Virus record (IMG/VR): IMGVR_UViG_3300025030_000039
Coordinates: 316,878-380,877 of that record
Direction: 5' to 3' (one strand)
DNA from: a virus
DNA length: 64,000 nucleotides
The notes below the pieces were generated by a model, which was given only the letters and a program-made list of their open reading frames with translations, made no database searches and was not told where the DNA came from. Below, piece after piece: positions 2,725-60,072 of this stretch. The position numbers and the translations under genes are program-made. Positions within the stretch are counted from its first letter, which is position 1. Each line of letters opens with the position of its first letter.

Positions 2725-2982
2725 TTAATGTAATGGATGAGATTTAGCATATCTATAATTCCAACGTTTTTTTAAGTCTTCAGAATATTCTGAATCATTT
2801 TGATACTTATTTACTACTTCATATAAAGCAGGATAAGCGGATTCTAATAAATTTCTATTTATTGAATCTGCAACAGTCATTGCTTCTATTAAATGAGTGT
2901 AAAATCTTCCCGTTAATTTTAATTGCCACATGCAGAATTTTTCTTCTTCTTCTGTTATAATAGCATCTACAAAATCTTTCAT
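2725..2982 (-). CDS. hypothetical protein
   Basis: Small ORF in the array; stop/start overlap with IF-3. Confidence 0.35.
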   Translation of the reverse strand: MKDFVDAIITEEEEKFCMWQLKLTGRFYTHLIEAMTVADSINRNLLESAYPALYEVVNKYQNDSEYSEDLKKRWNYRYAKSHPLH

Positions 2983-3509
2983 TATTTATTTATTTTAATT
3001 GATTTAAAAAAAAGTAACATTTTATTACCTTCCATCTTTGGACTTCCTTCTGGTTCACCAAGACCATTTAAGTCTTGTATTAATTTAGTTAATAATTTAG
3101 TTCCTAATTCTTTATGAGTAATCATTCTTCCTTTAAAAAAAACAAAGGTTTTTATTCTATTACCTTCGTTTAAAAACTTTTTAGCATGATTTAATTTAAA
3201 ATTATAATCATGCTCATCAGTCATAGGAGTATATCTTATTTCTTTTGTTTTTACTTGAGTTTGATTTTTTTCTTGATCTTTTTTCTTTTTCTTTTGTAAA
3301 TATAAAAACTTTTTATAATCTATTACTTTAACAACTGGAGGATTAGTATTAGGTGAAATTTCAACTAAATCTAAATCTAAATCATCAGCTTCTTGTAATG
3401 CTTCTTCTATGCTACATACTCTTGATTCTATTTCATCTCCAACAATTCTTACTGTTTTTGCTTTTATTTGATTATTTATACGAAAATTTAAATTATCATT
3501 CTTAGACAT
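2982..3509 (-). CDS. infC: translation initiation factor IF-3
   Basis: N-terminal INNQIKAKTVRIVGDE..IEEALQEA..DLDLVEISPN..PPVVKVIDYKKFLY, a KKKKK linker, and a C-terminal domain with KEIR..KL..AKKFL..G.RIK..V.F.GR..H.ELG match the IF-3 family pattern. Confidence 0.7.
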   Translation of the reverse strand: MSKNDNLNFRINNQIKAKTVRIVGDEIESRVCSIEEALQEADDLDLDLVEISPNTNPPVVKVIDYKKFLYLQKKKKKDQEKNQTQVKTKEIRYTPMTDEHDYNFKLNHAKKFLNEGNRIKTFVFFKGRMITHKELGTKLLTKLIQDLNGLGEPEGSPKMEGNKMLLFFKSIKINK

Positions 3510-7279: not shown

Positions 7280-7351
7280 AGCGAGATATCAGGATTGAAC
7301 TGACGGCCCTTGGTTTGGAAAACCAATGCTCTACCACTGAGCTAATCTCGC
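7280..7351 (-). tRNA. tRNA-Gly (anticodon UCC)
   Basis: Minus-strand RNA GCGAGAT TA GCTCAGTGGTAGAGC A TTGGT TTTCCAA ACCAA GGGCC GTCAG TTCAATC CTGAT ATCTCGC; all four stems pair. Confidence 0.8.
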
Positions 7352-7358
7352 ATTTTAA

Positions 7359-7942
7359 TTAACTAATTAAAACATCATATAATAAATTAATTTGATATTC
7401 TAAATCTTCTTTTAATCCATTATTATAAATAACATAATCAGAATTTTTAACTCTATAAATATCTGTAATTTGTTGTTTATTAATTCTTTTAATAACATCT
7501 TCTCTTGTACAATTATTTCTCTTTATTACTCTTTCTATTCTTTTTTCTATTGGTGAAACAACAGATATCATTTTATTATAAGAATCTTCATCATTTTTTT
7601 CGAATATAATTGCATTTTCGATAATTACAAATGGCTTTTTTTGTATTTTACACCAATAATCTATTTCTAATTCTACATAAGGATGAATTATTCTTTCAAT
7701 TTTATAAAGTTTATCGTTATCATTAAAAATAATAGAAGCTACTTTTTCTCTATTTAAACTTTTATCTGGGAAATAAACATCACCTAATAAATCAATAACT
7801 TTTTCTTTAATAGCATCATTTAAATATGCATCTCTTGCAATTTGATCTGCATTTAATACTGGAACACCTAATTTTGAAAATAAAAAAGCTACAGTACTTT
7901 TACCTGCACCTATACCACCTGTTAAACCTATTTTTGCCATAT
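7359..7942 (-). CDS. coaE: dephospho-CoA kinase
   Basis: MAKIGLTGGIGAGKST P-loop at the N-terminus and CoaE-like length. The ORF-track 5' extension to 8078 runs through tRNA-Thr and is rejected. Confidence 0.65.
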
Positions 7943-7962
7943 TAAATCTATTTAAAAATTTG

Positions 7963-8036
7963 AGCCTCCAGTAGGATTCGAACCCACGGCCCTCTCGGTA
8001 CAAACGAGATGCTCCGACCAACTGAGCTATAGAGGC
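7963..8036 (-). tRNA. tRNA-Thr (anticodon UGU)
   Basis: GCCTCTA TA GCTCAGTTGGTCGGAGC A TCTCG TTTGTAC CGAGA GGGCC GTGGG TTCGAAT CCTAC TGGAGGC. Confidence 0.75.
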
Positions 8037-8088
8037 ATTGGAGCGGGCTCGGCGATTCAACCGAGGATCATCCCGCATATTTTATTAG

Positions 8089-8160
8089 AGCGAGATATCA
8101 GAATTAAACTGACGACCTGAACATTGGCAATGTTCCGCTCTATCACTGAGCTAATCTCGC
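8089..8160 (-). tRNA. tRNA-Gly (anticodon GCC)
   Basis: GCGAGAT TA GCTCAGTGATAGAGC G GAACA TTGCCAA TGTTC AGGTC GTCAG TTTAATT CTGAT ATCTCGC. Confidence 0.8.
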
Positions 8161-16393: not shown

Positions 16394-18079
16394 TTATTTT
16401 TTATTAATTAAAAAAACTTGTGTTCCATTATTAACAACAATTCCAGCATTAGAATTGAAAACTTGTGACATTTCATCTACTAAATCACATTCATATTTTG
16501 CAATAGGATAAAAATCTTTTGCTCTTAAAAAGGTTAAATTATCATCTTCTGGTAAAATAATATAGCCATTATCTTTATTATAACCGAAATTTCTAAGATT
16601 ATCATATGAATCATCAGATAATATTGCATCAAGTCCGTTTATAACAAATAATGAAAACCTTTCTTTATCATCCTCGATAAAATGTGCTATACCAACATTA
16701 CCTTTTTGATAAATATCTTTAAGAGGCAATGGAAAACTAACAGTATTTAAAATATCATGCGATTGATAATAAATAAAATTTTTGCCATTTATTCTTTGGA
16801 TTAATCCATTTAAATTTGAATATCCTTTTCCATATGTTGGAATAAGAGTTGTTTGAATATAATTATTTAAAATACCATCTAAATTTATTTGATATCTATT
16901 ATCATTTGTTATTACTATCAAAGTATTATCTATTTGATAGTGAGTAATTATTTCAGTTGGTTGAAATCCTTGTATAAGAATATTTTGTTTACGATTTAAA
17001 TCAATTTTATAAAGTAATTTATCAATAAATATTATCACATTTTTATCTGTGGGAAATATTCCTCTAAAACCCGAGGGCTTACTTAGTGTATAAACCGGTT
17101 TAGCATGTCCCTTATATGTAAGGTCATATATATGGATATTTGCATCCTCTAAGATGCATCCGAATACATTACTACATGCCATATATTCTATATTTCCTTT
17201 AAAAATTTCTTTCATGACAAGTTCGCCTTTTGTAATACTAGTAGGCTTATGTGTTTTAATTTTTGTAATTATTTTAGTAGTAGGATTTAAATTTAATAAA
17301 AAGCGTTCTCCTTCATTAAATATTCTTTCAAATTGATTTAATAAGTTTTGATCTGTTATAGGTTCATAACATTTAGGTATTTTTAAATTTGGATCATTTT
17401 TAAGTATGCTTAATTTATAAATCATTCTATCTTGAATATCTTTATATTTTTGATGTATACCTTTATATGGATGTACAGTTGTAATTAAATTAAATATTAC
17501 AACTGCTAATGAAAAATAATCAGCATTTTTAGAAATTTCTCCATTATGATAAAAATCTCTAATATCATGTAAAAGTCTTCCCGAGTGTTTATTACCAGGT
17601 GTTTCATAGCTATCAACGTCTATAAATGCTATATCGCCATTTTTATGAGCTAATATATTAAATCCACTAAAATCACCAATCACGATGTTTAAAGAATGAA
17701 TATAATTTAAACATGTAATTAATTTTTGAGACACAGATAATTTCCAAGATTCTGTTAAATTATTTCTTTGACAATAATTACTATTAAATGCTGAATGTAA
17801 AGGAAAAAAATCTGATGGAACCATATCCATTATAAATCCAATAATATCTTTACTTGCTTGATGCGATATTAATAAAGCTTTAGGTTTTATAAATTCTTTT
17901 GCATTAATAGCATTAAGACTATTAAATTTTTGATCAGTAATCGGTTCAATTCCTTGAAGATATAATTTTGCAACTAAACCATGTCCAATTTCAATAATGC
18001 GGCCTTCACCACCTCTAGATAATTCTTTCTTTTCATCTATAGTAATTTTTTTACTAGATGCTTTATCATATACTATCAT
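16394..18079 (-). CDS. Ser/Thr protein kinase-like protein (atypical) with C-terminal repeat domain
   Basis: Gly-loop LSRGGEGRIIE followed by VAKLY Lys. The catalytic-loop region IVIGDFSGFNIL and a DVDS DFG-like motif are present. Confidence 0.5.
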   Translation of the reverse strand: MIVYDKASSKKITIDEKKELSRGGEGRIIEIGHGLVAKLYLQGIEPITDQKFNSLNAINAKEFIKPKALLISHQASKDIIGFIMDMVPSDFFPLHSAFNSNYCQRNNLTESWKLSVSQKLITCLNYIHSLNIVIGDFSGFNILAHKNGDIAFIDVDSYETPGNKHSGRLLHDIRDFYHNGEISKNADYFSLAVVIFNLITTVHPYKGIHQKYKDIQDRMIYKLSILKNDPNLKIPKCYEPITDQNLLNQFERIFNEGERFLLNLNPTTKIITKIKTHKPTSITKGELVMKEIFKGNIEYMACSNVFGCILEDANIHIYDLTYKGHAKPVYTLSKPSGFRGIFPTDKNVIIFIDKLLYKIDLNRKQNILIQGFQPTEIITHYQIDNTLIVITNDNRYQINLDGILNNYIQTTLIPTYGKGYSNLNGLIQRINGKNFIYYQSHDILNTVSFPLPLKDIYQKGNVGIAHFIEDDKERFSLFVINGLDAILSDDSYDNLRNFGYNKDNGYIILPEDDNLTFLRAKDFYPIAKYECDLVDEMSQVFNSNAGIVVNNGTQVFLINKK

Positions 18080-18831
18080 AATTCAATAATTGATTGTGAT
18101 ACATCATTTTGTAATATTAATCTAACAATAGATAAATCATCACTGGGATAAATATTTTCTTTATTTTCTAAAATATTAAATTTTCTGGATAACATTACAT
18201 CTAAATTTTCAAATTTTCTATCTATTAATAAAAAATCTAATATTTTTTTCTTATCTTCATCACTTAAAAAATGTCCATTTCTTTTTAATTGATCAATTCC
18301 ATCTGATGTTATTGATATATCATTATAATTTGAAAATTTAATTTCATGTTTTATTTTGAAGAAATTATTTTGTAAATGATATGAAATATAATCAGGCGCA
18401 TTATCTATTGGATCAACTCTTAATATTTCTGTACCATTATGAAATATTGATCCATCCCCAATAATTATTCCATGAGCATCATTTCTTTTAATATCAGCTA
18501 CAACCAATACAATAGTTGATAATATTTCATTTTCATTTAAATGTAAAAATTGACAAGTTTCTTTTAATTTAAGTTTAAAAGATTCTATTAATGAATTAGC
18601 AATAGATGAAGTGGTATTATAATCATATAAAAATTTTGTATAAGCTTGAAATTCAGTCAACATTAATTTTGTAAATAAGGTTGATGCAAAATATGATTTT
18701 GTTCCTCCTGAACATCCATCGAATACTGCAATAAATACCCAATCTTTATATTCAAAATATGTAAAATCATCTTCACAATGTAATGAATGAGACTCGCCTT
18801 TTCTTAAAAGAGTTTTAATACTATAATCCAT
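18076..18831 (-). CDS. PP2C-family Ser/Thr protein phosphatase
   Basis: VFIAVFDGCSGG (the DGHGG metal motif), IIIGDGSIF, and ITSDGIDQL (SDGlwd). Confidence 0.6.
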   Translation of the reverse strand: MDYSIKTLLRKGESHSLHCEDDFTYFEYKDWVFIAVFDGCSGGTKSYFASTLFTKLMLTEFQAYTKFLYDYNTTSSIANSLIESFKLKLKETCQFLHLNENEILSTIVLVVADIKRNDAHGIIIGDGSIFHNGTEILRVDPIDNAPDYISYHLQNNFFKIKHEIKFSNYNDISITSDGIDQLKRNGHFLSDEDKKKILDFLLIDRKFENLDVMLSRKFNILENKENIYPSDDLSIVRLILQNDVSQSIIEL

Positions 18832-18864
18832 TTGTTTAAAAAATAAAAGGGGCTTTAAGCCCCT
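18832..18864 (-). terminator. hairpin plus T-run between the vWA gene and the PP2C gene (intra-operon attenuator or terminator)
   Basis: AAGGGGC TTTAA GCCCCTT followed on the minus strand by TTTTATTTTTT. Confidence 0.45.
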
Positions 18865-18869
18865 TATTA

Positions 18870-19565
18870 TTAAAAGTTTGGTACAGAAATTGCTCCACTA
18901 GATGAAGCACTTGATACTGAAGAACTGATCCAGTTAATCATTTTACGTATATCCTTAGCAGTTTGACCTACTCTTGCTACAAATTCTTTAGGAATTCCCA
19001 TATTAGCAGCAGCTGATTCAAAATTTACTGAATCATTAATACCAAATAATACAGTTGTAAAATTTCTATTAGTCTTTTCTTCTGCTGCTAATTTAGCATG
19101 TATTGCTTTAACTTTAGCAGCATCACCGGTAAGTGATGAATTATCTTCACCATCTGTTAAAATAAATACTAAAGTTTTGCAATTAACACCGGAATTTTCA
19201 AGTTGATTTCTATAATTTAATGCATTTGTTAATCCTTTTTCTACTGCAGTATAAAGTGCAGTTCCATAACCACTACCTTTAAATGTATCTAATTTTACAT
19301 TTGCAATAGGTTGAAATCCAGATTTAACATTTACACTATCATTAAATTCAACAATAGATACTAATAAACTATCTGCTATATGAGATTTTTGCATTTCTTC
19401 GGTAAAATCTTTAAGAGCAGAATTTAAATCATTTTCATAATCTGATATTGAAGGTGATATATCAACAATAAATACTGCATTTATTGTTTCATCAGCATCA
19501 ATTGCATCAGGATTAAAATTTCCAAATTGATTACCAAATTGTACGTCATTATAAAGTTCGTCCAT
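18870..19565 (-). CDS. von Willebrand factor A domain protein (TerY-like)
   Basis: MIDAS motif FIVDISPSIS (DxSxS), later LTDGEDN, about 230 aa. Confidence 0.6.
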   Translation of the reverse strand: MDELYNDVQFGNQFGNFNPDAIDADETINAVFIVDISPSISDYENDLNSALKDFTEEMQKSHIADSLLVSIVEFNDSVNVKSGFQPIANVKLDTFKGSGYGTALYTAVEKGLTNALNYRNQLENSGVNCKTLVFILTDGEDNSSLTGDAAKVKAIHAKLAAEEKTNRNFTTVLFGINDSVNFESAAANMGIPKEFVARVGQTAKDIRKMINWISSSVSSASSSGAISVPNF

Positions 19566-19576
19566 TGTTATAATTA

Positions 19577-20410
19577 TTAAAGGTTAATATCTGTTAATTT
19601 AGCAAATCTTATACCCATTTGTCTAGCTTGAGCATAAATTGGATCTGCAAGTGTTTCAAATCCTGGTACTGGAGACATTCCATCTTCAAGAATAATAAAC
19701 TTTGAAGCTAATTGAGGGAATTCCATTGCTTGTTTAAGAGTATTTGCTACACAATGACTAGAAGCTTCTCCTGCAAAATAAATTTCATTATATTTTTCTA
19801 ATGTGTTAATTAGATATTGATTAAGTTGAGTAGCAGGAGCATTTTGAACTGGAATATTTGCTCTAAATGCACCAAAATGTTCACTTAATGGGTGTTCACC
19901 TTTTTGAATAACTTGAAAAAATCTTCCTTGTCTTGCCCAATTTTTAACAGCTGTCATTAATTCATCTACTATAGCAGCTCCTGTTGATCCAACTATACAA
20001 TGTTCAGGCCAAATACAATGTGGAAATTCTTTTTGTCTTTCTAATTCTTCAACATATTTTAAAGATTCATGAGGCATATATCTTGGAGTCCATTCTCCAG
20101 AACGTATTTGTGAAGAACTAATACTTGTAAAATGACCTGGATTATTTCCATCTTTATCTTGCCAATATGATGGATGAGATATATCAATTACTTGATGTGT
20201 ATCTTGAGTTAATCCTATATAATTAATTTGTGATTTATTTCTATCAATAAAATCAACAATTCTTTTTACATCATTTTCGGCACCTTTAACATAAAGAGCA
20301 CCTTGTGGAAAAACAATATCATCTTTTGGATCATTTGTTACTTTAATTCTTCTTTCTGGTAAACAAAAATCATTTTGTATATCAATAAGTAATAATGCAG
20401 ATTTTTTCAT
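19577..20410 (-). CDS. pncA: isochorismatase-family hydrolase, nicotinamidase/pyrazinamidase-like
   Basis: LLLIDIQNDF N-terminal motif, catalytic Cys in HCIVGSTGAAIV, and a second SHCV. GC content is noticeably higher than its neighbours. Confidence 0.55.
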   Translation of the reverse strand: MKKSALLLIDIQNDFCLPERRIKVTNDPKDDIVFPQGALYVKGAENDVKRIVDFIDRNKSQINYIGLTQDTHQVIDISHPSYWQDKDGNNPGHFTSISSSQIRSGEWTPRYMPHESLKYVEELERQKEFPHCIWPEHCIVGSTGAAIVDELMTAVKNWARQGRFFQVIQKGEHPLSEHFGAFRANIPVQNAPATQLNQYLINTLEKYNEIYFAGEASSHCVANTLKQAMEFPQLASKFIILEDGMSPVPGFETLADPIYAQARQMGIRFAKLTDINL

Positions 20411-20479: not shown

Positions 20480-20932
20480 TTATTCAATCCAATAATCATA
20501 TACTTCTTTAGTTACTCTTGCATAAAAACTGGGACGATACCATGTATCATTATTTTTATGCCAAGATGCTATAGTTTCTCCAGCATGTAATGGATCAAAT
20601 ATAATTCCATTTTGTTTATAAATAGTTTGCATAATATTTCCATCTGCATCTAAATATGAAACATACCAATAACTATATTCAGATTTATTATTTTCAAAAT
20701 TATCATTTTGAGTTTTAAGTATAATTAATTCTTCTTTTAATAATTTTAATTCATTTATAACAGATTCTAATTGTTCATATGATACAGCAGATTTATTAGT
20801 GTTATTTTCATCTGCCCAATTACACTCATCTTTTGTAATATTTTGAAATTTTTCATTTTTAACTTTATCATTACAACTTATTAAAAATAAAAAAGGACTT
20901 ATTATAAGTCCTTTTATAAAATACTTTATCAT
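20480..20932 (-). CDS. lipoprotein
   Basis: Signal peptide with lipobox LISC. Confidence 0.45.
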   Translation of the reverse strand: MIKYFIKGLIISPFLFLISCNDKVKNEKFQNITKDECNWADENNTNKSAVSYEQLESVINELKLLKEELIILKTQNDNFENNKSEYSYWYVSYLDADGNIMQTIYKQNGIIFDPLHAGETIASWHKNNDTWYRPSFYARVTKEVYDYWIE

Positions 20933-21384
20933 TTTAATTTATTTATTAAACTTTTAGATTGATTATCGATGTATTTAGTTTTTTGTTTCCAAATATCTAT
21001 ATTTTCATTTAATTTATTTCTTTCTTCTTCGGTAAAATTAATTTGATTATAATCTTTACTTGCTTTAATATAATATTGTACAGGACCATCTTTTATCCAA
21101 ATTTGAACTCCATTTTTATTTATAAAATCATATTGTGTCATTTTCCAATCATCTGTATGTGTTAAAATATCTATACACAAAATATCAATAACTTTTTCAG
21201 GATCAAAATTATTAGTTTTTTCTTTATTAAAAATAAGTCCATCTTTATAATTATCTTGTGTAATATATTCGCCAGGTTTATTATAATCATCTGTTGGTCT
21301 TATATAAAAATCACCTTTCGATGATTCATATCCACATGAAAATAATGTAAATATTATAAATGTAAATAAAATTAGTTTTTTCAT
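20929..21384 (-). CDS. lipoprotein
   Basis: Signal peptide with lipobox LFSCG. Confidence 0.45.
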   Translation of the reverse strand: MKKLILFTFIIFTLFSCGYESSKGDFYIRPTDDYNKPGEYITQDNYKDGLIFNKEKTNNFDPEKVIDILCIDILTHTDDWKMTQYDFINKNGVQIWIKDGPVQYYIKASKDYNQINFTEEERNKLNENIDIWKQKTKYIDNQSKSLINKLK

Positions 21385-21394
21385 ATTTTAAATT

Positions 21395-22234
21395 TTAATT
21401 GTTTGTAAAATCTGTTATTTTTATAGAATTAACTTTAAATCTATATTTTAATTTTCTTAATATATTATTCAAAGTTATTCTAATAGTTTCGCCTGAAACA
21501 TCCAATAATTTTCCTATTTCCCAATATGTTTTGCCTTCTTTACCATTTAATCCATAATAATTAATTATTATAATTTTTTCACGTTCTGATAAAGCATTAA
21601 TAACATTTAATAATAATAATTTGTTATCATTTAATATTAAATTATTATCTACTGGAATATAATTAGTATCAATCAAAGTATCTAATACACATAAATTATC
21701 ACTTGATGTTTCGTCATATAAATATGATGTATGCATAAAATTATATTGATAAAATTTAATATAATCATTTCTATCAATATTTAATAAATCTTCATCAGTT
21801 TTAATAGTTTCTTCAAGTTTTCTAATTTTTAAATAGATACTTGAAGGTATTCTAATATGATTAGAATGATTATGTAATGCGACGTGAATAGTATTTTTAA
21901 TCCACCATACTGCATATGAAATAAATTTAAATCCTCTTGTTGGATCAAACTTTTTAGCAGCAATTATAAGTCCTAAATTACCTTCATTTATTAAATCTTC
22001 TAATGGCATTAAACCTTGATACATTTTTGCTACACTTATAACAAACCTTAAATTATTTAATATTAATTGATCTATAGCATTTTGATCATTTTCCTTTTGA
22101 TATTTTATAACTAAATCAGTTTCATCTTCTATAGATAATGATTTAAATTTTTTAATGTCATTAAAATATCTATTAATATTATCGTTTCTGTCTGTTATAA
22201 CTGATTCTTTGCTTACCTTAAAAACTTTCATCAA
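21395..22234 (-). CDS. RNA polymerase sigma factor (sigma-70 family)
   Basis: Region 2 DLINEGNLGLIIAAKKFDPTRGFKFISYAVWWIKN and a region 4 HTH near the C-terminus (TYWEIGKLLDVSGETIRI). Confidence 0.6.
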   Translation of the reverse strand: MMKVFKVSKESVITDRNDNINRYFNDIKKFKSLSIEDETDLVIKYQKENDQNAIDQLILNNLRFVISVAKMYQGLMPLEDLINEGNLGLIIAAKKFDPTRGFKFISYAVWWIKNTIHVALHNHSNHIRIPSSIYLKIRKLEETIKTDEDLLNIDRNDYIKFYQYNFMHTSYLYDETSSDNLCVLDTLIDTNYIPVDNNLILNDNKLLLLNVINALSEREKIIIINYYGLNGKEGKTYWEIGKLLDVSGETIRITLNNILRKLKYRFKVNSIKITDFTNN

Positions 22235-23704: not shown

Positions 23705-24565
23705 TTACAAATTCCTAAATAATACTGGACGTTCTATAATTATAGGTATATGCCGTTTAAATTCAGATTTAATATGTCTATTAATAACTAAATGATCTTT
23801 ATAAATAGATTTTTCTTTATTTACAATATAATCGTAAAGTATTTTATCAGCTTCTTGATAACTAGATGCACCTATTTGTTCTAAATCACTGTTACTAATT
23901 CCTAGCCCATCAGTTGGAACAGCATTAATACATTCTTGAAGAGCTAATTTAACTTTACCTTCTAATTCATTATCAACTATATATTGTGATAATTTATAAA
24001 CTTCAGTTTTCCAAAGCATTTGTATTTGTGCATAATCTCCTTGGTCGCCACAGATCGTCCAAAACCCTAATAAATATTCAGTGTAATTATCAGTTGACAT
24101 TACCATACCTTTATTCTTAGATGCTAAATTATAAAGATAAATCATTCTTAATCTAGCTTTAATATTTCCTAATCTTATTTTTTTACCATTTAATGTATTA
24201 TCAACAATTGGATCAACAATGTCATCAAAGTATTCTATATCATCATAATCTTCAGATAAATCTAAATGGTTAAAATCAGTACAGAAATTTTTACCAATAT
24301 TCATAGATCTATTTATTTCATCTACTTTATTAGTTTTAATTGTTAAACTTCGTCCTATAATAGGAATATTTAATTCATCACATATAGGTTTAGATATTGC
24401 TGCAATTAATGCACTATCAATTCCACCTGAAATTCCTAATACAATTGATTTTAAATTATTGTTTAATAAATATTGTTTTAATTCATTTCTTAAATTTGTA
24501 ATTACTAAATTGCATTCCTCTTTAGTATTAAGTAATGATACTGGATCGTTAGAAATATATTTCAT
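23705..24565 (-). CDS. nadE: NH3-dependent NAD+ synthetase
   Basis: PP-loop IVLGISGGIDSAL (SGGxDS) and NadE-like length. Confidence 0.6.
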   Translation of the reverse strand: MKYISNDPVSLLNTKEECNLVITNLRNELKQYLLNNNLKSIVLGISGGIDSALIAAISKPICDELNIPIIGRSLTIKTNKVDEINRSMNIGKNFCTDFNHLDLSEDYDDIEYFDDIVDPIVDNTLNGKKIRLGNIKARLRMIYLYNLASKNKGMVMSTDNYTEYLLGFWTICGDQGDYAQIQMLWKTEVYKLSQYIVDNELEGKVKLALQECINAVPTDGLGISNSDLEQIGASSYQEADKILYDYIVNKEKSIYKDHLVINRHIKSEFKRHIPIIIERPVLFRNL

Positions 24566-24707: not shown

Positions 24708-25055
24708 TTAATTCTTGCTTTTATTATATTTTTCTTTTCTTTTAGCTAAAATTTTTTCCCTATTTTTTATATAATAATTTGCATTATATTCTTTTAATAA
24801 TATTTTAAGTTTCTTTTCTTTTTTATTAAAAATTATTTTTAAATCTTTTGGATTAAAAATATATGCAAATCCTTCTAACATAATACCTTTTTTTCCTTTT
24901 GTTGTAGACCAATTAGCATCTACTATTTTTTCAACTTTACGAGTAATTCCTATTAATGATATATCATCATGACCTAATGTTTTAATTGTTGATTTTATTA
25001 CTACACTTTTTCCTTTTTTAAATTTTTTCATTTTTATTTTATTAAAAATTAACAT
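24708..25055 (-). CDS. hypothetical basic protein
   Basis: ORF only. Confidence 0.35.
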   Translation of the reverse strand: MLIFNKIKMKKFKKGKSVVIKSTIKTLGHDDISLIGITRKVEKIVDANWSTTKGKKGIMLEGFAYIFNPKDLKIIFNKKEKKLKILLKEYNANYYIKNREKILAKRKEKYNKSKN

Positions 25056-25504
25056 TAAAATATTTCAAATTTTATTCCAGATATTTTTAAAAGTTCATCT
25101 GTTTCTTTTGTATATCCTGATTTATCATACGGACGTTCATATATAACTCTAGTAATACCAGCAGCTATTAAATGTTTTAAACAATTATGACAAGGTTGAT
25201 GAGTACAATATAAAGTAGTATTTGATGTTTCTTTTCCTTCTTTAGAAGCAAATAAAATACTATTCATTTCAGCATGAACCTCAAATAAATTGGACCATTC
25301 ATGATGATCTTCTCTGTTAAATTCACCTATAAACTTTTCATTACAATTAATAAATCCAGGAGGTGAACCATTATATCCAGTTGATATTATTCTATTACTT
25401 TTAACTAAAACTGCACCTACATGATAACTTACACAATTAGACTGTTCTGATATTCTTTGAGCTATATCTAAGAACATCTTATCTATTTTTTTATGTTTAT
25501 CCAT
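25055..25504 (-). CDS. dCMP/cytidine deaminase
   Basis: HAEMNSI...C..PCHNC zinc-binding deaminase signature. Confidence 0.65.
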   Translation of the reverse strand: MDKHKKIDKMFLDIAQRISEQSNCVSYHVGAVLVKSNRIISTGYNGSPPGFINCNEKFIGEFNREDHHEWSNLFEVHAEMNSILFASKEGKETSNTTLYCTHQPCHNCLKHLIAAGITRVIYERPYDKSGYTKETDELLKISGIKFEIF

Positions 25505-25509
25505 TTAAA

Positions 25510-25863
25510 TTATATAAAAAAATTAATTAAACTTTTTAAATTATTTATGTTGTCATTTTTATTAAAAAATGCGTCAAATGGATCATAATTTAAATGCTTG
25601 TATTTTTTACTTATTTTACTTGTTGTACTTGAACCTATTATAGATGTCGCAGGTCGATGTGTTTTAATTATTGTTGCTGCATCATATCCACTCATATTTG
25701 TAGTTTGAATATTCATTAAAATTACATCATATTTATTTTCAGCTGCTTTCATTATAGCTTCAGAATTACTTTCAACATAATCTATAGAATATTTTTTATC
25801 TTTTAAAATTAATTCTATTAAAGTAGAAAAATTTTTATCTTCATCAGATACCAGTATATTCAT
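25510..25863 (-). CDS. stand-alone receiver (REC)-like domain protein, probable pseudo-receiver
   Basis: ILVSDED acidic pocket, but the phospho-acceptor position reads DVILMNIQ (Asn where Asp is expected). Confidence 0.35.
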   Translation of the reverse strand: MNILVSDEDKNFSTLIELILKDKKYSIDYVESNSEAIMKAAENKYDVILMNIQTTNMSGYDAATIIKTHRPATSIIGSSTTSKISKKYKHLNYDPFDAFFNKNDNINNLKSLINFFI

Positions 25864-27747: not shown

Positions 27748-28308
27748 TTACATTAATTGGGTAATATATTTAGATGGAACATTATCAGTTAAATAAACAT
27801 CATTTAAAGTTTTATAAAAAACAATATTATCTTTAACCATTGATTTACAATCAATTAATAAAATTACTCCACCATTTTTTTTATCATGTCTAGCTCCGGT
27901 TTCTAAAGCCTTTTGTATGTGTTCTTCTCCATATAAATGAACATGATGTCTTGTCATTTTATTAAGACCTTCTTTTTTAATTTGTGATAATAAACGAAAT
28001 CCTGTTCCATGATACAATTTTGTAGGAGGTATAACCTTTTCAAAATCATTTTTAATATTAATAGAATGACCTTGATTAGCTTTAATCATAGTTTTATTTT
28101 CATTAAAACGAAATCTTTGTTTAGGACATGTTTCTACTATATTAATAATATCATCTACGGTAAAATCTTCTCGCTCACTTGCCTTAGATATAATTTCATC
28201 AACGTTAGCCCATCCATATTCATCTAATTTAAGATCAATAGTTTCAGGTCTATGCCTTAAAACATAAGTTAAAAATTTACTTATTTTATTTTTTTTGTTT
28301 GAATCCAT
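27748..28308 (-). CDS. kptA: RNA 2'-phosphotransferase (Tpt1/KptA family)
   Basis: ISKFLTYVLRHRPE...LDEYGWA, KQRF, IKANQGHSI, KLYHGT, MTRHHVHL: the conserved Tpt1 blocks in order. Confidence 0.65.
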   Translation of the reverse strand: MDSNKKNKISKFLTYVLRHRPETIDLKLDEYGWANVDEIISKASEREDFTVDDIINIVETCPKQRFRFNENKTMIKANQGHSINIKNDFEKVIPPTKLYHGTGFRLLSQIKKEGLNKMTRHHVHLYGEEHIQKALETGARHDKKNGGVILLIDCKSMVKDNIVFYKTLNDVYLTDNVPSKYITQLM

Positions 28309-28805: not shown

Positions 28806-28879
28806 TGGACCCTATAGGACTTGAACCTATAACCTCATCGTTATGAGCGATTTGCGCTCACCAATTGCGCCAAAGGTCC
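28806..28879 (-). tRNA. tRNA-Met or tRNA-Ile2 (anticodon CAU)
   Basis: GGACCTT TG GCGCAATTGGTGAGCGC A AATCG CTCATAA CGATG AGGTT ATAGG TTCAAGT CCTAT AGGGTCC A. Confidence 0.75.
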
Positions 28880-28886
28880 GTTTTTA

Positions 28887-29327
28887 TTATTTGTAAAGTT
28901 TTAATTTTCCTGTTATATTATTAATTTCTTCTTCATCAGCTGGTCCTATTGCTACACATGTTTTAGTAGGAACTCCATTAAATATAGTATCACCAGCATC
29001 TGTAATAAGTACTGTAGGAAGTTTAGCATCTTTAGCTTTATAATAAATTAATTCTAATTCTTCTTCAGAATTACATTCTAAAACAATTTTAGTAAATTTT
29101 TCTTCCAACCATTTATCTAATGAAGAATTAATTGCATATGGAATAGTTATAATTTTTTCATTATAAATAAAAGTTGAACCATCCTTAACTTCTTTTCTAA
29201 TTCTAATATCTTTTTCACTTAAAGATAATACAGCACCTAAAGAAGCATGAGATACTTGAGCAGCTAATTTACCAGCCGGCATATTTAAATCTTTTCTTGC
29301 TACTATTACTTGTTTTGCTTTTGACAT
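28887..29327 (-). CDS. pth2: peptidyl-tRNA hydrolase, PTH2 family
   Basis: VIVARKDLNMPAGKLAAQVSHAS N-terminal signature and a C-terminal TCVAIGP block. Confidence 0.65.
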   Translation of the reverse strand: MSKAKQVIVARKDLNMPAGKLAAQVSHASLGAVLSLSEKDIRIRKEVKDGSTFIYNEKIITIPYAINSSLDKWLEEKFTKIVLECNSEEELELIYYKAKDAKLPTVLITDAGDTIFNGVPTKTCVAIGPADEEEINNITGKLKLYK

Positions 29328-59187: not shown

Positions 59188-59596
59188 CGTGATCTACTAT
59201 TACAACCATAGTTTCTGTTAAATTTTCTTTTAATTTTAAAGCAGCTTCTTTATCAATAATATCAAGAACTTTTTGCATGTATTCTCTTAATGCTAAACCT
59301 CTTGCAAATGGAATTTCACCTCTATCTCTAATATCTTGCCAATTAAAATTAGGCATTAATGCATTAGCTATATCTAATCCAAATGGAGCATCAACATTAA
59401 TAATAACTATAACTACATCATTATTTGTTAAATGTCTTTCATTAATTCTATTTCTAAAATGTACAATTCTATCTATATTGAGATGAAATGTATTTATACA
59501 ATTACTTTTTTCAACTGCTTTAATTACAGAAACTGCTTCAGGATCAATTAAAACAATTTCGCCATTAATATTTTCTATTCGTGGTAAATTTTCCAT
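59162..59596 (-). CDS. hypothetical protein
   Basis: ORF only; overlaps cysC by 26 nt. Confidence 0.35.
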   Translation of the reverse strand: MENLPRIENINGEIVLIDPEAVSVIKAVEKSNCINTFHLNIDRIVHFRNRINERHLTNNDVVIVIINVDAPFGLDIANALMPNFNWQDIRDRGEIPFARGLALREYMQKVLDIIDKEAALKLKENLTETMVVIVDHGVAEVYDI

Positions 59597-60072
59597 TATT
59601 TTATAAAATCATTACGTAATTGTGTTAATACTTTTCCTAATAAATTTTGACCTGGCCATTTATTTTCTGGAATATTTACAGCATCTTCTTCTAATAATCC
59701 AATACCCCATATTTTATCATAAGGACTTGCTTCTACTAAAGTTCTAGTTTCAGTAGCAATTAATTGTTTTAATAGGTTTGGATTTTGTTCAAATTTTTCT
59801 TTATTAACATCATACATAAAATTATATGATATTTTACTCCATTTATCAGTATCAAATCCTTTAACTTTTCTTCCTAATTTTTTATTTAAACTCGGATTAG
59901 GTTCATTTAAAATTTCATTTGCTGTTTTAGAATCATTAAAATAATTTGCTTTTTCCCACATAAAAGCTTGTTCACTATTTGAAAATTCTAAACTTTTATA
60001 ATTAAATTTAACAGAATACCAATTGGAATATATTCCATTCCAAAAAAATACATACTTATCAGTTGTTATCAT
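59596..60072 (-). CDS. NADAR (YbiA/DUF1768) domain protein
   Basis: FFWNGIYSNW...F.SEQAFMWEKA..F.D...LGRKVKGFD...W...KF.QN..L...LL.T....L.E.S..D.IWGIG follows the NADAR conserved blocks. Confidence 0.55.
   Translation of the reverse strand: MITTDKYVFFWNGIYSNWYSVKFNYKSLEFSNSEQAFMWEKANYFNDSKTANEILNEPNPSLNKKLGRKVKGFDTDKWSKISYNFMYDVNKEKFEQNPNLLKQLIATETRTLVEASPYDKIWGIGLLEEDAVNIPENKWPGQNLLGKVLTQLRNDFIK

Follow-up and report, generated by a model that had tools for sequence, protein, structure and literature searches.

A TerY-P-like triad with a beta-propeller kinase and its candidate nicotinamidase partner in huge phages and Bacteroidota

Introduction

Gene triads that encode a vWA protein, a PP2C phosphatase and a Ser/Thr kinase (TerY-P triads) are widespread. 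They are found in Escherichia coli K-12 and in CoCoNuT restriction systems, and some are stand-alone modules that act against phages. TerY-P is defined by a TerY-like vWA protein, a PP2C phosphatase and a Ser/Thr kinase that is fused to a zinc ribbon (PMC11090510), and in the anti-phage TerY-P-like modules an OB-fold takes the place of the zinc ribbon (PMC11090510; PMC7699616). Here, we describe a triad of this kind, which lies directly behind a gene for a nicotinamidase-like protein at positions 16394-20410 (minus strand) of a 64,000-nucleotide stretch of viral DNA (IMG/VR record IMGVR_UViG_3300025030_000039, positions 316,878 to 380,877). This whole stretch is called the window in the following, and all positions refer to it unless another record or contig is named.

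The E. coli triad has the gene order yegL–pphC–yegI, and an ATGA overlap of pphC and yegI was reported for the strains REL606 and O157:H7 (bioRxiv 10.1101/819920). Nicotinamidase genes are known from another context. Operons of nrtR, pncA and pncB constitute the established salvage-I regulon, which is released by ADP-ribose and for which no vWA or kinase partners are listed (PMC2330246). Phages reconstitute NAD+ by three described NAD+ reconstitution pathways (NARPs), which involve Adps and Namat (NARP1), Nampt and Nmnat (NARP2) or PnuC and NadR (NARP3). None of them uses PncA, and for the PncA-like gene of phage G the function is listed as unknown. When we searched the literature for a nicotinamidase associated with vWA, PP2C and kinase genes or with TerY and NrtR, no description of such an association was found, but an earlier mention cannot be excluded.

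Results

Gene order and conservation of the locus

The window matches LR756500.1, the unannotated 462,018-bp record of an uncultured phage, with 100% identity, and window positions equal the record positions minus 54,149. Its GC content is 0.24 and nearly all genes are located on the minus strand. In gene sense, the locus starts with the amidase gene (20410→19577), which is followed by the vWA gene (19565→18870), the PP2C gene (18831→18076) and the kinase gene (18079→16394). The amidase and vWA genes are separated by 11 nucleotides and the vWA and PP2C genes by 38 nucleotides, and the PP2C and kinase genes share a 4-nucleotide ATGA overlap. The order of the three triad genes and their domain set are those of TerY-P (PMC11090510), the order is also that of yegL–pphC–yegI, and the overlap suggests a translational coupling of PP2C and kinase like that in E. 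coli REL606 and O157:H7. An earlier reading of the bare letters (the original prediction) had placed such a triad, together with a nicotinamidase-like gene, in a phage-like gene array, and the coordinates of the four open reading frames were reproduced exactly, while their phage context and the match to TerY-P were confirmed.

On balance, we read this region as one conserved four-gene cassette and not as a triad with a stray neighbour. Three homologues of the vWA protein could be traced to contigs (L001, L003, L005), each of which carries homologues of the four genes in unchanged order. One of these contigs is a Bacteroidales metagenome-assembled genome in which an NrtR-type regulator is encoded directly upstream. 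A scan with the amidase family yielded 70 bacterial loci, nearly all from Bacteroidota, as well as 12 IMG/VR contigs that range from 57 to 501 kb. Synteny was counted with family hidden Markov models on all open reading frames, and contig ends were allowed for. The vWA gene was located directly behind the amidase gene in 47 of 64 bacterial and in 11 of 12 viral loci. Among the 40 bacterial loci with at least 4.5 kb of downstream sequence, 17 carried all four genes, 10 only pncA and the vWA gene and 11 only pncA, and the complete set was present in 8/12 viral loci. Searching in the opposite direction, with the kinase as anchor, we recovered pncA, vWA and PP2C genes in 33/47 metagenomic and 8/9 viral loci. 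Taken together, these counts show that no other gene is linked to the vWA gene as tightly as pncA. Two viral loci that seemed to carry pncA and the vWA gene without a kinase (IMGVR_UViG_3300045988_175545 and _179933) were rejected as such, because the kinase gene was found elsewhere on the same contig.

The bacterial surroundings of the cassette point to NAD+ salvage. An nrtR gene was detected upstream of it in 27 of 54 bacterial loci and in none of the viral loci, and the gene between nrtR and pncA (L009, L039) encodes PncB (NAPRTase, 4e-52). Thus, the Bacteroidota operon is arranged as nrtR–pncB–pncA–vWA–PP2C–kinase, and the relatives of the phage amidase gene adjoin pncB and nrtR as in the salvage-I operon. 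L001 was the closest relative of all four window proteins or tied for this place. A concatenated tree placed the window in a clade made up of phages only, with another phage clade nearer to the bacterial ones. Because of the common nearest relative and the position within a phage clade, we conclude that huge phages probably took up the cassette as a unit from NAD-recycling operons of Bacteroidota.

Several variants of the locus were seen. In L006 (1093-1488) and L064 (8415-8645) the amidase gene is followed by a short kinase-family fragment (E 1e-33 and 9e-21), without vWA or PP2C genes, and these two loci look like decayed cassettes. One Bacteroidales clade (L013, 13903-16917; also L016, L031, L064 and L006) carries two further genes behind the cassette, one for a conserved NUDIX protein of 277 aa and one for a protein of 726 aa with a methyltransferase domain, neither of which is present in the phage. 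An extra 0.6-4.6 kb separates the PP2C and kinase genes in the viral loci L077 (12191-13646), L081 (12481-13592), L087 (13058-17661) and L076 (6291-6893).

The nicotinamidase-like protein

The first gene of the cassette (19577-20410, minus strand) encodes a PncA/Pnc1-like protein of 277 aa that belongs to the isochorismatase superfamily. The Pfam family Isochorismatase (PF00857) was matched with an E-value of 1.6e-6 (28.7 bits, cut-off 27), and a search of the PDB with the family profile retrieved yeast Pnc1 (2H0R, E 5.8e-17), every other top match being a nicotinamidase as well. In the family profile alignment D10, K170 and C220 align with the catalytic residues of Pnc1, and D70, H72 and H137 with its metal ligands, which we take to be D8, K122, C167 and D51, H53, H94 in the numbering of that enzyme. 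All six residues are kept in 80/80 family members, and the source annotations of the homologues read nicotinamidase/pyrazinamidase. The isochorismatase-family nicotinamidase-like gene that had been assumed next to the triad is thus supported by Pfam, by the PDB profile matches and by the conserved active site.

The protein shares with PncA and Pnc1 the fold, the D-K-C triad and the D/H/H metal site, but it differs from PncA in three respects. Its match to the NCBIfam nicotinamidase model PRK11609 (E 2.8e-13) reached 50.1 bits, whereas the equivalog cut-off is 174 bits, and no NCBIfam match passed its threshold. The metal ligands H72 and H137 are set apart by a longer, conserved segment, which has 65-68 residues in all 80 members. 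Finally, a vWA gene almost always stands behind its gene. Judged by its sequence, the amidase represents a divergent subfamily and not an equivalog of E. coli PncA. A further peculiarity is a 17-residue insertion (residues 17-33, window 20313-20363) right behind the DFC motif. This variable loop, which sits near the active-site entrance, lacks an insertion in 53/80 family members, contains 7 extra residues in 23/80 and 16 extra residues in the phage locus L076.

The original prediction had also held that the GC content of the amidase gene is distinctly elevated, which suggested that the gene was acquired separately. Numerically, the first statement is correct, since the gene has the highest GC content (0.300) of 45 open reading frames, followed by the vWA gene (0.292). 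As a sign of foreign DNA it fails. The GC content at third codon positions (GC3) is 0.058 for the amidase gene and 0.069 for the vWA gene and thus lower than the genome mean (0.085), and the excess resides in codon positions 1 and 2. Because of this pattern, we attribute the excess to the amino acid composition of conserved enzymes and reject a foreign origin of the gene on the basis of GC content. Separate acquisition is also contradicted by the linkage of amidase and vWA genes, by the kinase-anchored counts and by the nearest relative shared by all four proteins.

The vWA protein

The second gene (18870-19565, minus strand) encodes a stand-alone TerY/YegL-type vWA protein of 231 aa with a complete metal-ion-dependent adhesion site (MIDAS). 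The open reading frame had no significant Pfam match of its own (best match VWA_CoxE at 0.019), and a single-sequence search of the PDB gave nothing significant either, so that a fold search was used instead. The AlphaFold2 (AF2) model has a predicted local distance difference test score (pLDDT) of 85.8, and its best PDB matches are vWA/integrin I-domains. We found 301 homologues with 50-60% identity, many of which carry PF00092 and the JGI name YegL; the YegL COG is of the 'TerY type'. An hhalign comparison of the family with E. coli YegL returned 96.2% (E 2.3e-9) over 174 columns, the Ser-rich tail included. When 72,556 plasmids were searched by tblastn for annotated TerY genes, six weak matches were obtained and none of them was annotated as TerY.

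The MIDAS residues (D35-x-S37-x-S39, T102, D138) are invariant in 58/58 family members. The same applies to the C-terminal Phe (F231, 58/58), and the disordered N-terminal part contains a conserved peptide (FGNFNP). The last helix of the model (residues 203-221) is Ser-rich, with S216 kept in 58/58 and S214 in 57/58 members, and it aligns with the same region of YegL. Homologues, the YegL alignment, the fold and the invariant MIDAS together confirm the predicted stand-alone vWA/MIDAS protein.

In archaea, the stand-alone vWA protein of the ArnA/ArnB system is set by eukaryote-like kinases and phosphatases, and ArnB and its FHA partner control archaellum expression. In the comparisons of both structure and sequence, ArnB (8s05) came up as one of the matches of the phage protein. 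The cassette encodes no FHA protein, and the likeness to ArnA/ArnB is one of fold only.

The PP2C phosphatase and the propeller-kinase

The third gene (18076-18831, minus strand) encodes a PP2C-family Ser/Thr phosphatase of 251 aa, for which the profile search yielded the anticipated PP2C match (PF13672, PP2C_2, E 1.5e-10, 41.5 bits). The acidic metal-binding motifs (D21, D38-G39, D126, D177-G178, D231-D232) are invariant in 31/31 members, and with these motifs intact the phosphatase looks active, as far as this can be predicted. Similarity to E. coli PphC exists at the family level only, and neither BLASTP nor hhalign detected any specific similarity between the two proteins.

The fourth gene (16394-18079, minus strand, 561 aa) encodes a Hanks-type, YegI-like kinase domain (residues 1-272, window 17264-18079), which is followed by a disordered linker (273-280) and an all-beta domain (282-561, window 16394-17236). 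Pkinase of Pfam was matched with an E-value of 2.1e-7, and the score of 31.1 bits falls just short of the cut-off of 31.7. A BLASTP comparison with E. coli YegI gave 25% identity over 211 aa (E 2e-11). The family profile produced nothing significant in the PDB at 1e-5. The AF2 model (pLDDT 92.2, predicted template modelling score 0.90) was therefore compared by Foldseek, in which the N-terminal half matched the kinase folds of ASK1, PKA and PhK. The family keeps the P-loop glycines (G23, G24, G26) as well as K38, D136, N141, D154 and D156 without exception (27/27). Profile match, fold and catalytic residues agree that this reading frame has a kinase fold, and the large C-terminal domain that had been suspected is found in the model.

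This C-terminal domain consists of about 29 strands, is modelled with a pLDDT >90 and resembles a seven-bladed beta-propeller. Its Foldseek matches are the seven-bladed propellers of WIPI2b, Vps18, the clathrin N-terminal domain, Nup159 and Sec12. A search of 1.84 billion representatives with the propeller alone found only 98 clusters, and since every full-length match has 550-597 aa and is matched at about residues 280-560, the propeller exists only as a kinase fusion. We presume that it serves as an input or docking domain.

Hairpin and sub-modules

The stop codon of the vWA gene is separated from the PP2C start codon by an intrinsic-terminator-like hairpin, AAGGGGCTTAAAGCCCCTT, with the T-run TTATTTTTT (18837-18865, minus strand). 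A hairpin plus T-run at this place had been stated in the original prediction. The hairpin proper (18865-18847) has an 8-bp stem with 5 G-C pairs, a folding free energy of -13.8 kcal/mol and a z-score of -3.14. It is the best terminator-like site within 12 kb, and in all 64 kb the sense strand has only one other perfect GC-rich hairpin with a T-run. This second site (about 40862-40826, minus strand; AAACCCAATTC...GAATTGGGTTT plus T-run) is located just upstream of the tmRNA gene. Strong hairpins comparable to that of the window were seen behind the vWA gene in the phage-like loci L005, L081 and L087, and similar ones close the operon in several bacterial loci with only pncA and the vWA gene.

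The order of the genes is permuted to PP2C-kinase-pncA-vWA in L156, L193 and L194, and in one viral genome of 380 kb the two halves of the cassette are about 25 kb apart. Since the order can be permuted and the halves can be separated, the cassette consists of two sub-modules, pncA-vWA and PP2C-kinase, and the terminator-like hairpin is located exactly at their junction. A scan for sigma-70 promoters returned 110 sites compared with 121 expected in shuffled sequence, and no promoter was called. Rfam scans of the cassette for a riboswitch or leader RNA gave nothing over noise.

A further terminator-like hairpin (20915-20891, minus strand; 11-bp stem with 3 G-C pairs, T-run) sits just past the stop of the open reading frame 20929-21384 and inside the first codons of the listed frame 20480-20932. 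The true start of this 150-aa frame may be located further downstream.

Comparison with TerY-P and defence systems

The relationship to the E. coli triad concerns the vWA protein (YegL, including the Ser-rich helix) and the kinase domain (YegI). The C-terminus of the kinase sets the phage triad apart from the known types, being a family-specific beta-propeller where the CoCoNuT type has a zinc ribbon, the defence type of Gao 2020 an OB-fold and YegI a membrane-spanning region; neither the zinc ribbon that defines TerY-P nor an OB-fold was found. Two other features that TerY-P does not have are the coupling to a nicotinamidase and to NAD-salvage genes and the terminator-like hairpin that splits the vWA gene from the PP2C-kinase pair. 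Thus, the cassette is a TerY-P-like variant, which is new in its propeller-kinase and in its nicotinamidase partner.

When the four proteins were searched with PADLOC, the amidase had no match, and for the vWA protein and PP2C there was none even when E-values up to 10 were admitted. Since yegL and pphC of E. coli, used as controls, were equally negative, the library appears to be blind to these components, and the negative outcome was not taken as evidence in either direction. The kinase weakly matched PD-T4-6, MkoA and Mad6, and E. coli YegI gives the same matches.

NAD+ genes elsewhere in the phage

Genes outside the cassette were surveyed in about 164 kb of the 462 kb of LR756500.1. A NAD synthetase gene (nadE, 23705-24565, minus strand) lies about 3.3 kb upstream of the cassette in gene sense, and its product, which acts in the same pathway, matches PF02540 (NAD_synthase, E 2.7e-33) and carries an SGGIDS motif. 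A pncB gene of this phage lies about 8 kb beyond the window (record 44920-46068; 40697-41884 of contig L089, which corresponds to record 4200-54149; minus strand), and its product is 50% identical to a Bacteroidales PncB (E 7e-117). Close to it we found a gene for a NadM-Nudix-like bifunctional protein (L089 43405-44316, minus strand). The C-terminal domain of this protein is a NUDIX domain (E 4.8e-10), and the N-terminal domain matches the NMN (nicotinamide mononucleotide) adenylyltransferase/Nudix structures of Francisella and Synechocystis (2QJT 1.2e-5, 2QJO 8.9e-4). Genes for an ADP-ribosylglycohydrolase (L089 39216-40016, 8e-35) and a ClpP protease (L089 40141-40692, 1e-30), both on the minus strand, complete this cluster, which spans about 5 kb. 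By their sequences, PncA, PncB, the candidate adenylyltransferase and NadE make up a predicted complete set of enzymes for the conversion of nicotinamide to NAD+. Further very large genomes of uncultured phages, LR756501.1/LR756503.1 (735 kb), LR756511.1 (595 kb) and LR745208.1 (485 kb), also encode PncB, with 46-47% identity to that of Bacteroidales, and/or a more distant PncA-like protein (~37%).

The window itself is unusually rich in genes related to NAD and ADP-ribose. Besides the cassette it encodes, all on the minus strand, a NAD-consuming RNA 2'-phosphotransferase (Tpt1/KptA, 27748-28308, 4e-47), a Macro domain protein (44578-45156), a NADAR domain protein (59596-60072, 4.5e-43) and an ARPP-1 domain protein (48688-49725, 4e-23). 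Directly after the ARPP-1 gene there is a 521-aa open reading frame (49734-51299, minus strand) without a Pfam match at 1e-4, in which vWA/MIDAS-like motifs can be seen by eye (ILVDGSNSSRGDS ... FIISDGYEN). This frame and the ARPP-1 frame have the third and fourth highest GC content of the window, and the 521-aa frame may belong to a second vWA-containing NAD/ADP-ribose system.

Other features of the window

The phage encodes several components of gene expression. The window contains a tmRNA gene (40360-40772, 95.5 bits, E 5.9e-36) and 23 tRNA genes (e.g. 7280-7351, 7963-8036, 8089-8160, 28806-28879, 39837-39992), all on the minus strand. Some tRNAs are overlapped by the starts of mechanically listed open reading frames, and the CoaE frame (7359-8078) probably begins at an internal Met. 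Also located on the minus strand are genes for a sigma-70 family factor with regions 2 and 4 (21395-22234; PHROG 351, 5e-49), the translation initiation factor IF3 (2982-3509) and the peptidyl-tRNA hydrolase PTH2 (28887-29327). A dCMP/cytidine deaminase gene (25055-25504, minus strand) is followed by a gene whose 117-aa product is a response-regulator receiver domain on its own, without output domain (25510-25863, minus strand).

Discussion

The explanation that we favour by a small measure is that the triad works as a phospho-switch together with the nicotinamidase in NAD+ salvage and does not constitute a stand-alone defence triad. According to this model, PncA would convert nicotinamide to nicotinate, the first salvage step. 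The nicotinamide would stem from NAD+ cleavage, for instance by host NADase defences or by the phage Tpt1, and nicotinate would be converted to NAD+ via phage PncB, the NadM-Nudix-like enzyme and NadE. The vWA protein would be the dedicated partner of this nicotinamidase subfamily and may contact it physically. Kinase and PP2C would form a reversible switch of the vWA state, and the most plausible phospho-acceptor is the Ser-rich last helix. In integrin I-domains, the last helix couples allosterically to the MIDAS site. Phosphorylation may then gate either the activity of the nicotinamidase or its assembly with partners. The beta-propeller could receive the signal as an input domain, or it may dock the conserved peptide, and the terminator-like hairpin might allow the nicotinamidase-vWA pair to be made in excess over its kinase and PP2C regulators.

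Like NARP1-3, the phage set comprises phage-encoded enzymes that could restore NAD+ from its precursors or degradation products, and this points to a possible counter to NAD+-depleting immunity. It differs in that the route would be of the Preiss-Handler type, that the genes are spread over about 30 kb and do not form a two-gene operon, and that one step is tied to a signalling triad. None of the cassette proteins corresponds to a NARP1, NARP2 or NARP3 gene pair; NARP genes were not searched for across the phage genome.

A number of points weigh against this model. NadM-type enzymes usually prefer NMN, and the route may run through the amidation of nicotinic acid mononucleotide, as in Francisella. 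The link of vWA protein, PP2C and kinase to the nicotinamidase is inferred from gene neighbourhood. Because 11 bacterial loci encode the PncA subfamily without a nearby vWA gene, and because no pncA-vWA pair lies within 7 kb in 13 of the metagenomic loci anchored on the kinase, the partnership is either not obligate or acts at a distance. The score far under the equivalog cut-off makes another amide substrate possible. Furthermore, related TerY-P-like modules act against phages, including T7-like phages (PMC11090510; PMC7699616), and NrtR paralogues of Bacteroidetes also regulate pentose use (PMC2330246).

Among the competing explanations, the one that fares best turns the nicotinamidase into a conflict effector. 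The propeller-kinase would sense infection or a competitor and trigger, via the vWA protein, the destruction of nicotinamide, which would starve the NAD+ rebuilding of a rival or relieve NADases of the product that inhibits them. Nicotinamide is required by NARP1 as well as NARP2, the cassette has moved between bacteria and at least two phage clades, and conflict-type genes of NAD and ADP-ribose metabolism (Tpt1, Macro, NADAR, ARPP-1) abound in the window. However, the co-location with pncB and nrtR in bacteria and the PncB, NadM and NadE of the phage point to productive salvage, a toxin-like effector is absent, and no defence-island context was seen. We consider this explanation improbable.

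The original prediction had proposed that the triad could act in superinfection exclusion or host takeover, which would make it an autonomous TerY-P-type conflict module and the nicotinamidase an unrelated metabolic neighbour. Its domain set and order equal those of TerY-P, the protection that TerY-P-like modules confer against T7-like phages would fit, and so would the matches of the kinase to the defence kinases PD-T4-6, MkoA and Mad6. These matches are generic, though, as those of YegI indicate, and the pncA-vWA linkage is tighter than that of the vWA gene with PP2C and kinase. The kinase ends in a propeller and not in the OB-fold or zinc ribbon of the defence-linked triads, the bacterial context is NrtR and PncB instead of defence islands, and the phage carries further genes of the NAD+ pathway. 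No specific support for a defence triad emerged, and we regard this reading as quite improbable.

It is also conceivable that the amidase is not a nicotinamidase and hydrolyses another amide (a nucleotide-like metabolite or a modified protein), with the triad regulating that chemistry. The low PRK11609 score, the long conserved H72-H137 segment and the variable loop behind the DFC motif would be in line with this. The nicotinamidase catalytic triad and metal site are invariant, however, the best PDB matches are all nicotinamidases, and in bacteria the gene stands directly beside pncB and nrtR, which leaves us very doubtful of such a substrate. That the cassette is non-functional passenger DNA freshly taken from a host is hardly credible despite its clear bacterial relatives, as it has completely taken on the GC3 and the composition of the phage, has every active site intact and is retained in many huge-phage contigs that form their own clade.

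Returning to the phospho-switch in NAD+ salvage, the vWA gene is almost welded to the nicotinamidase gene in NAD-salvage operons, and for this reason the cassette offers the first candidate target for a TerY-P triad. This target is directly testable, and a quick check of phospho-regulation is feasible because nicotinamidase has a simple assay. If the link were one of operon neighbourhood only, the finding would shrink to a modest one, a new TerY-P variant of huge phages whose kinase carries a beta-propeller. Tentatively, and with considerable reserve, we propose that a client of a TerY-P-type triad has been found, with vWA protein, PP2C and propeller-kinase forming a phospho-switch dedicated to a nicotinamidase. 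In huge Bacteroidota phages, this regulated enzyme would open a fourth phage pathway of NAD+ reconstitution, one of the Preiss-Handler type (PncA-PncB-NadM-NadE), which would rebuild NAD+ from nicotinamide freed by NAD+-depleting immunity. Depletion and reconstitution of NAD+ are a central front of the conflict between phages and bacteria. If the proposal is true, the Preiss-Handler set of the phage and its signalling module would represent a new kind of countermeasure, the first with a regulated salvage step.

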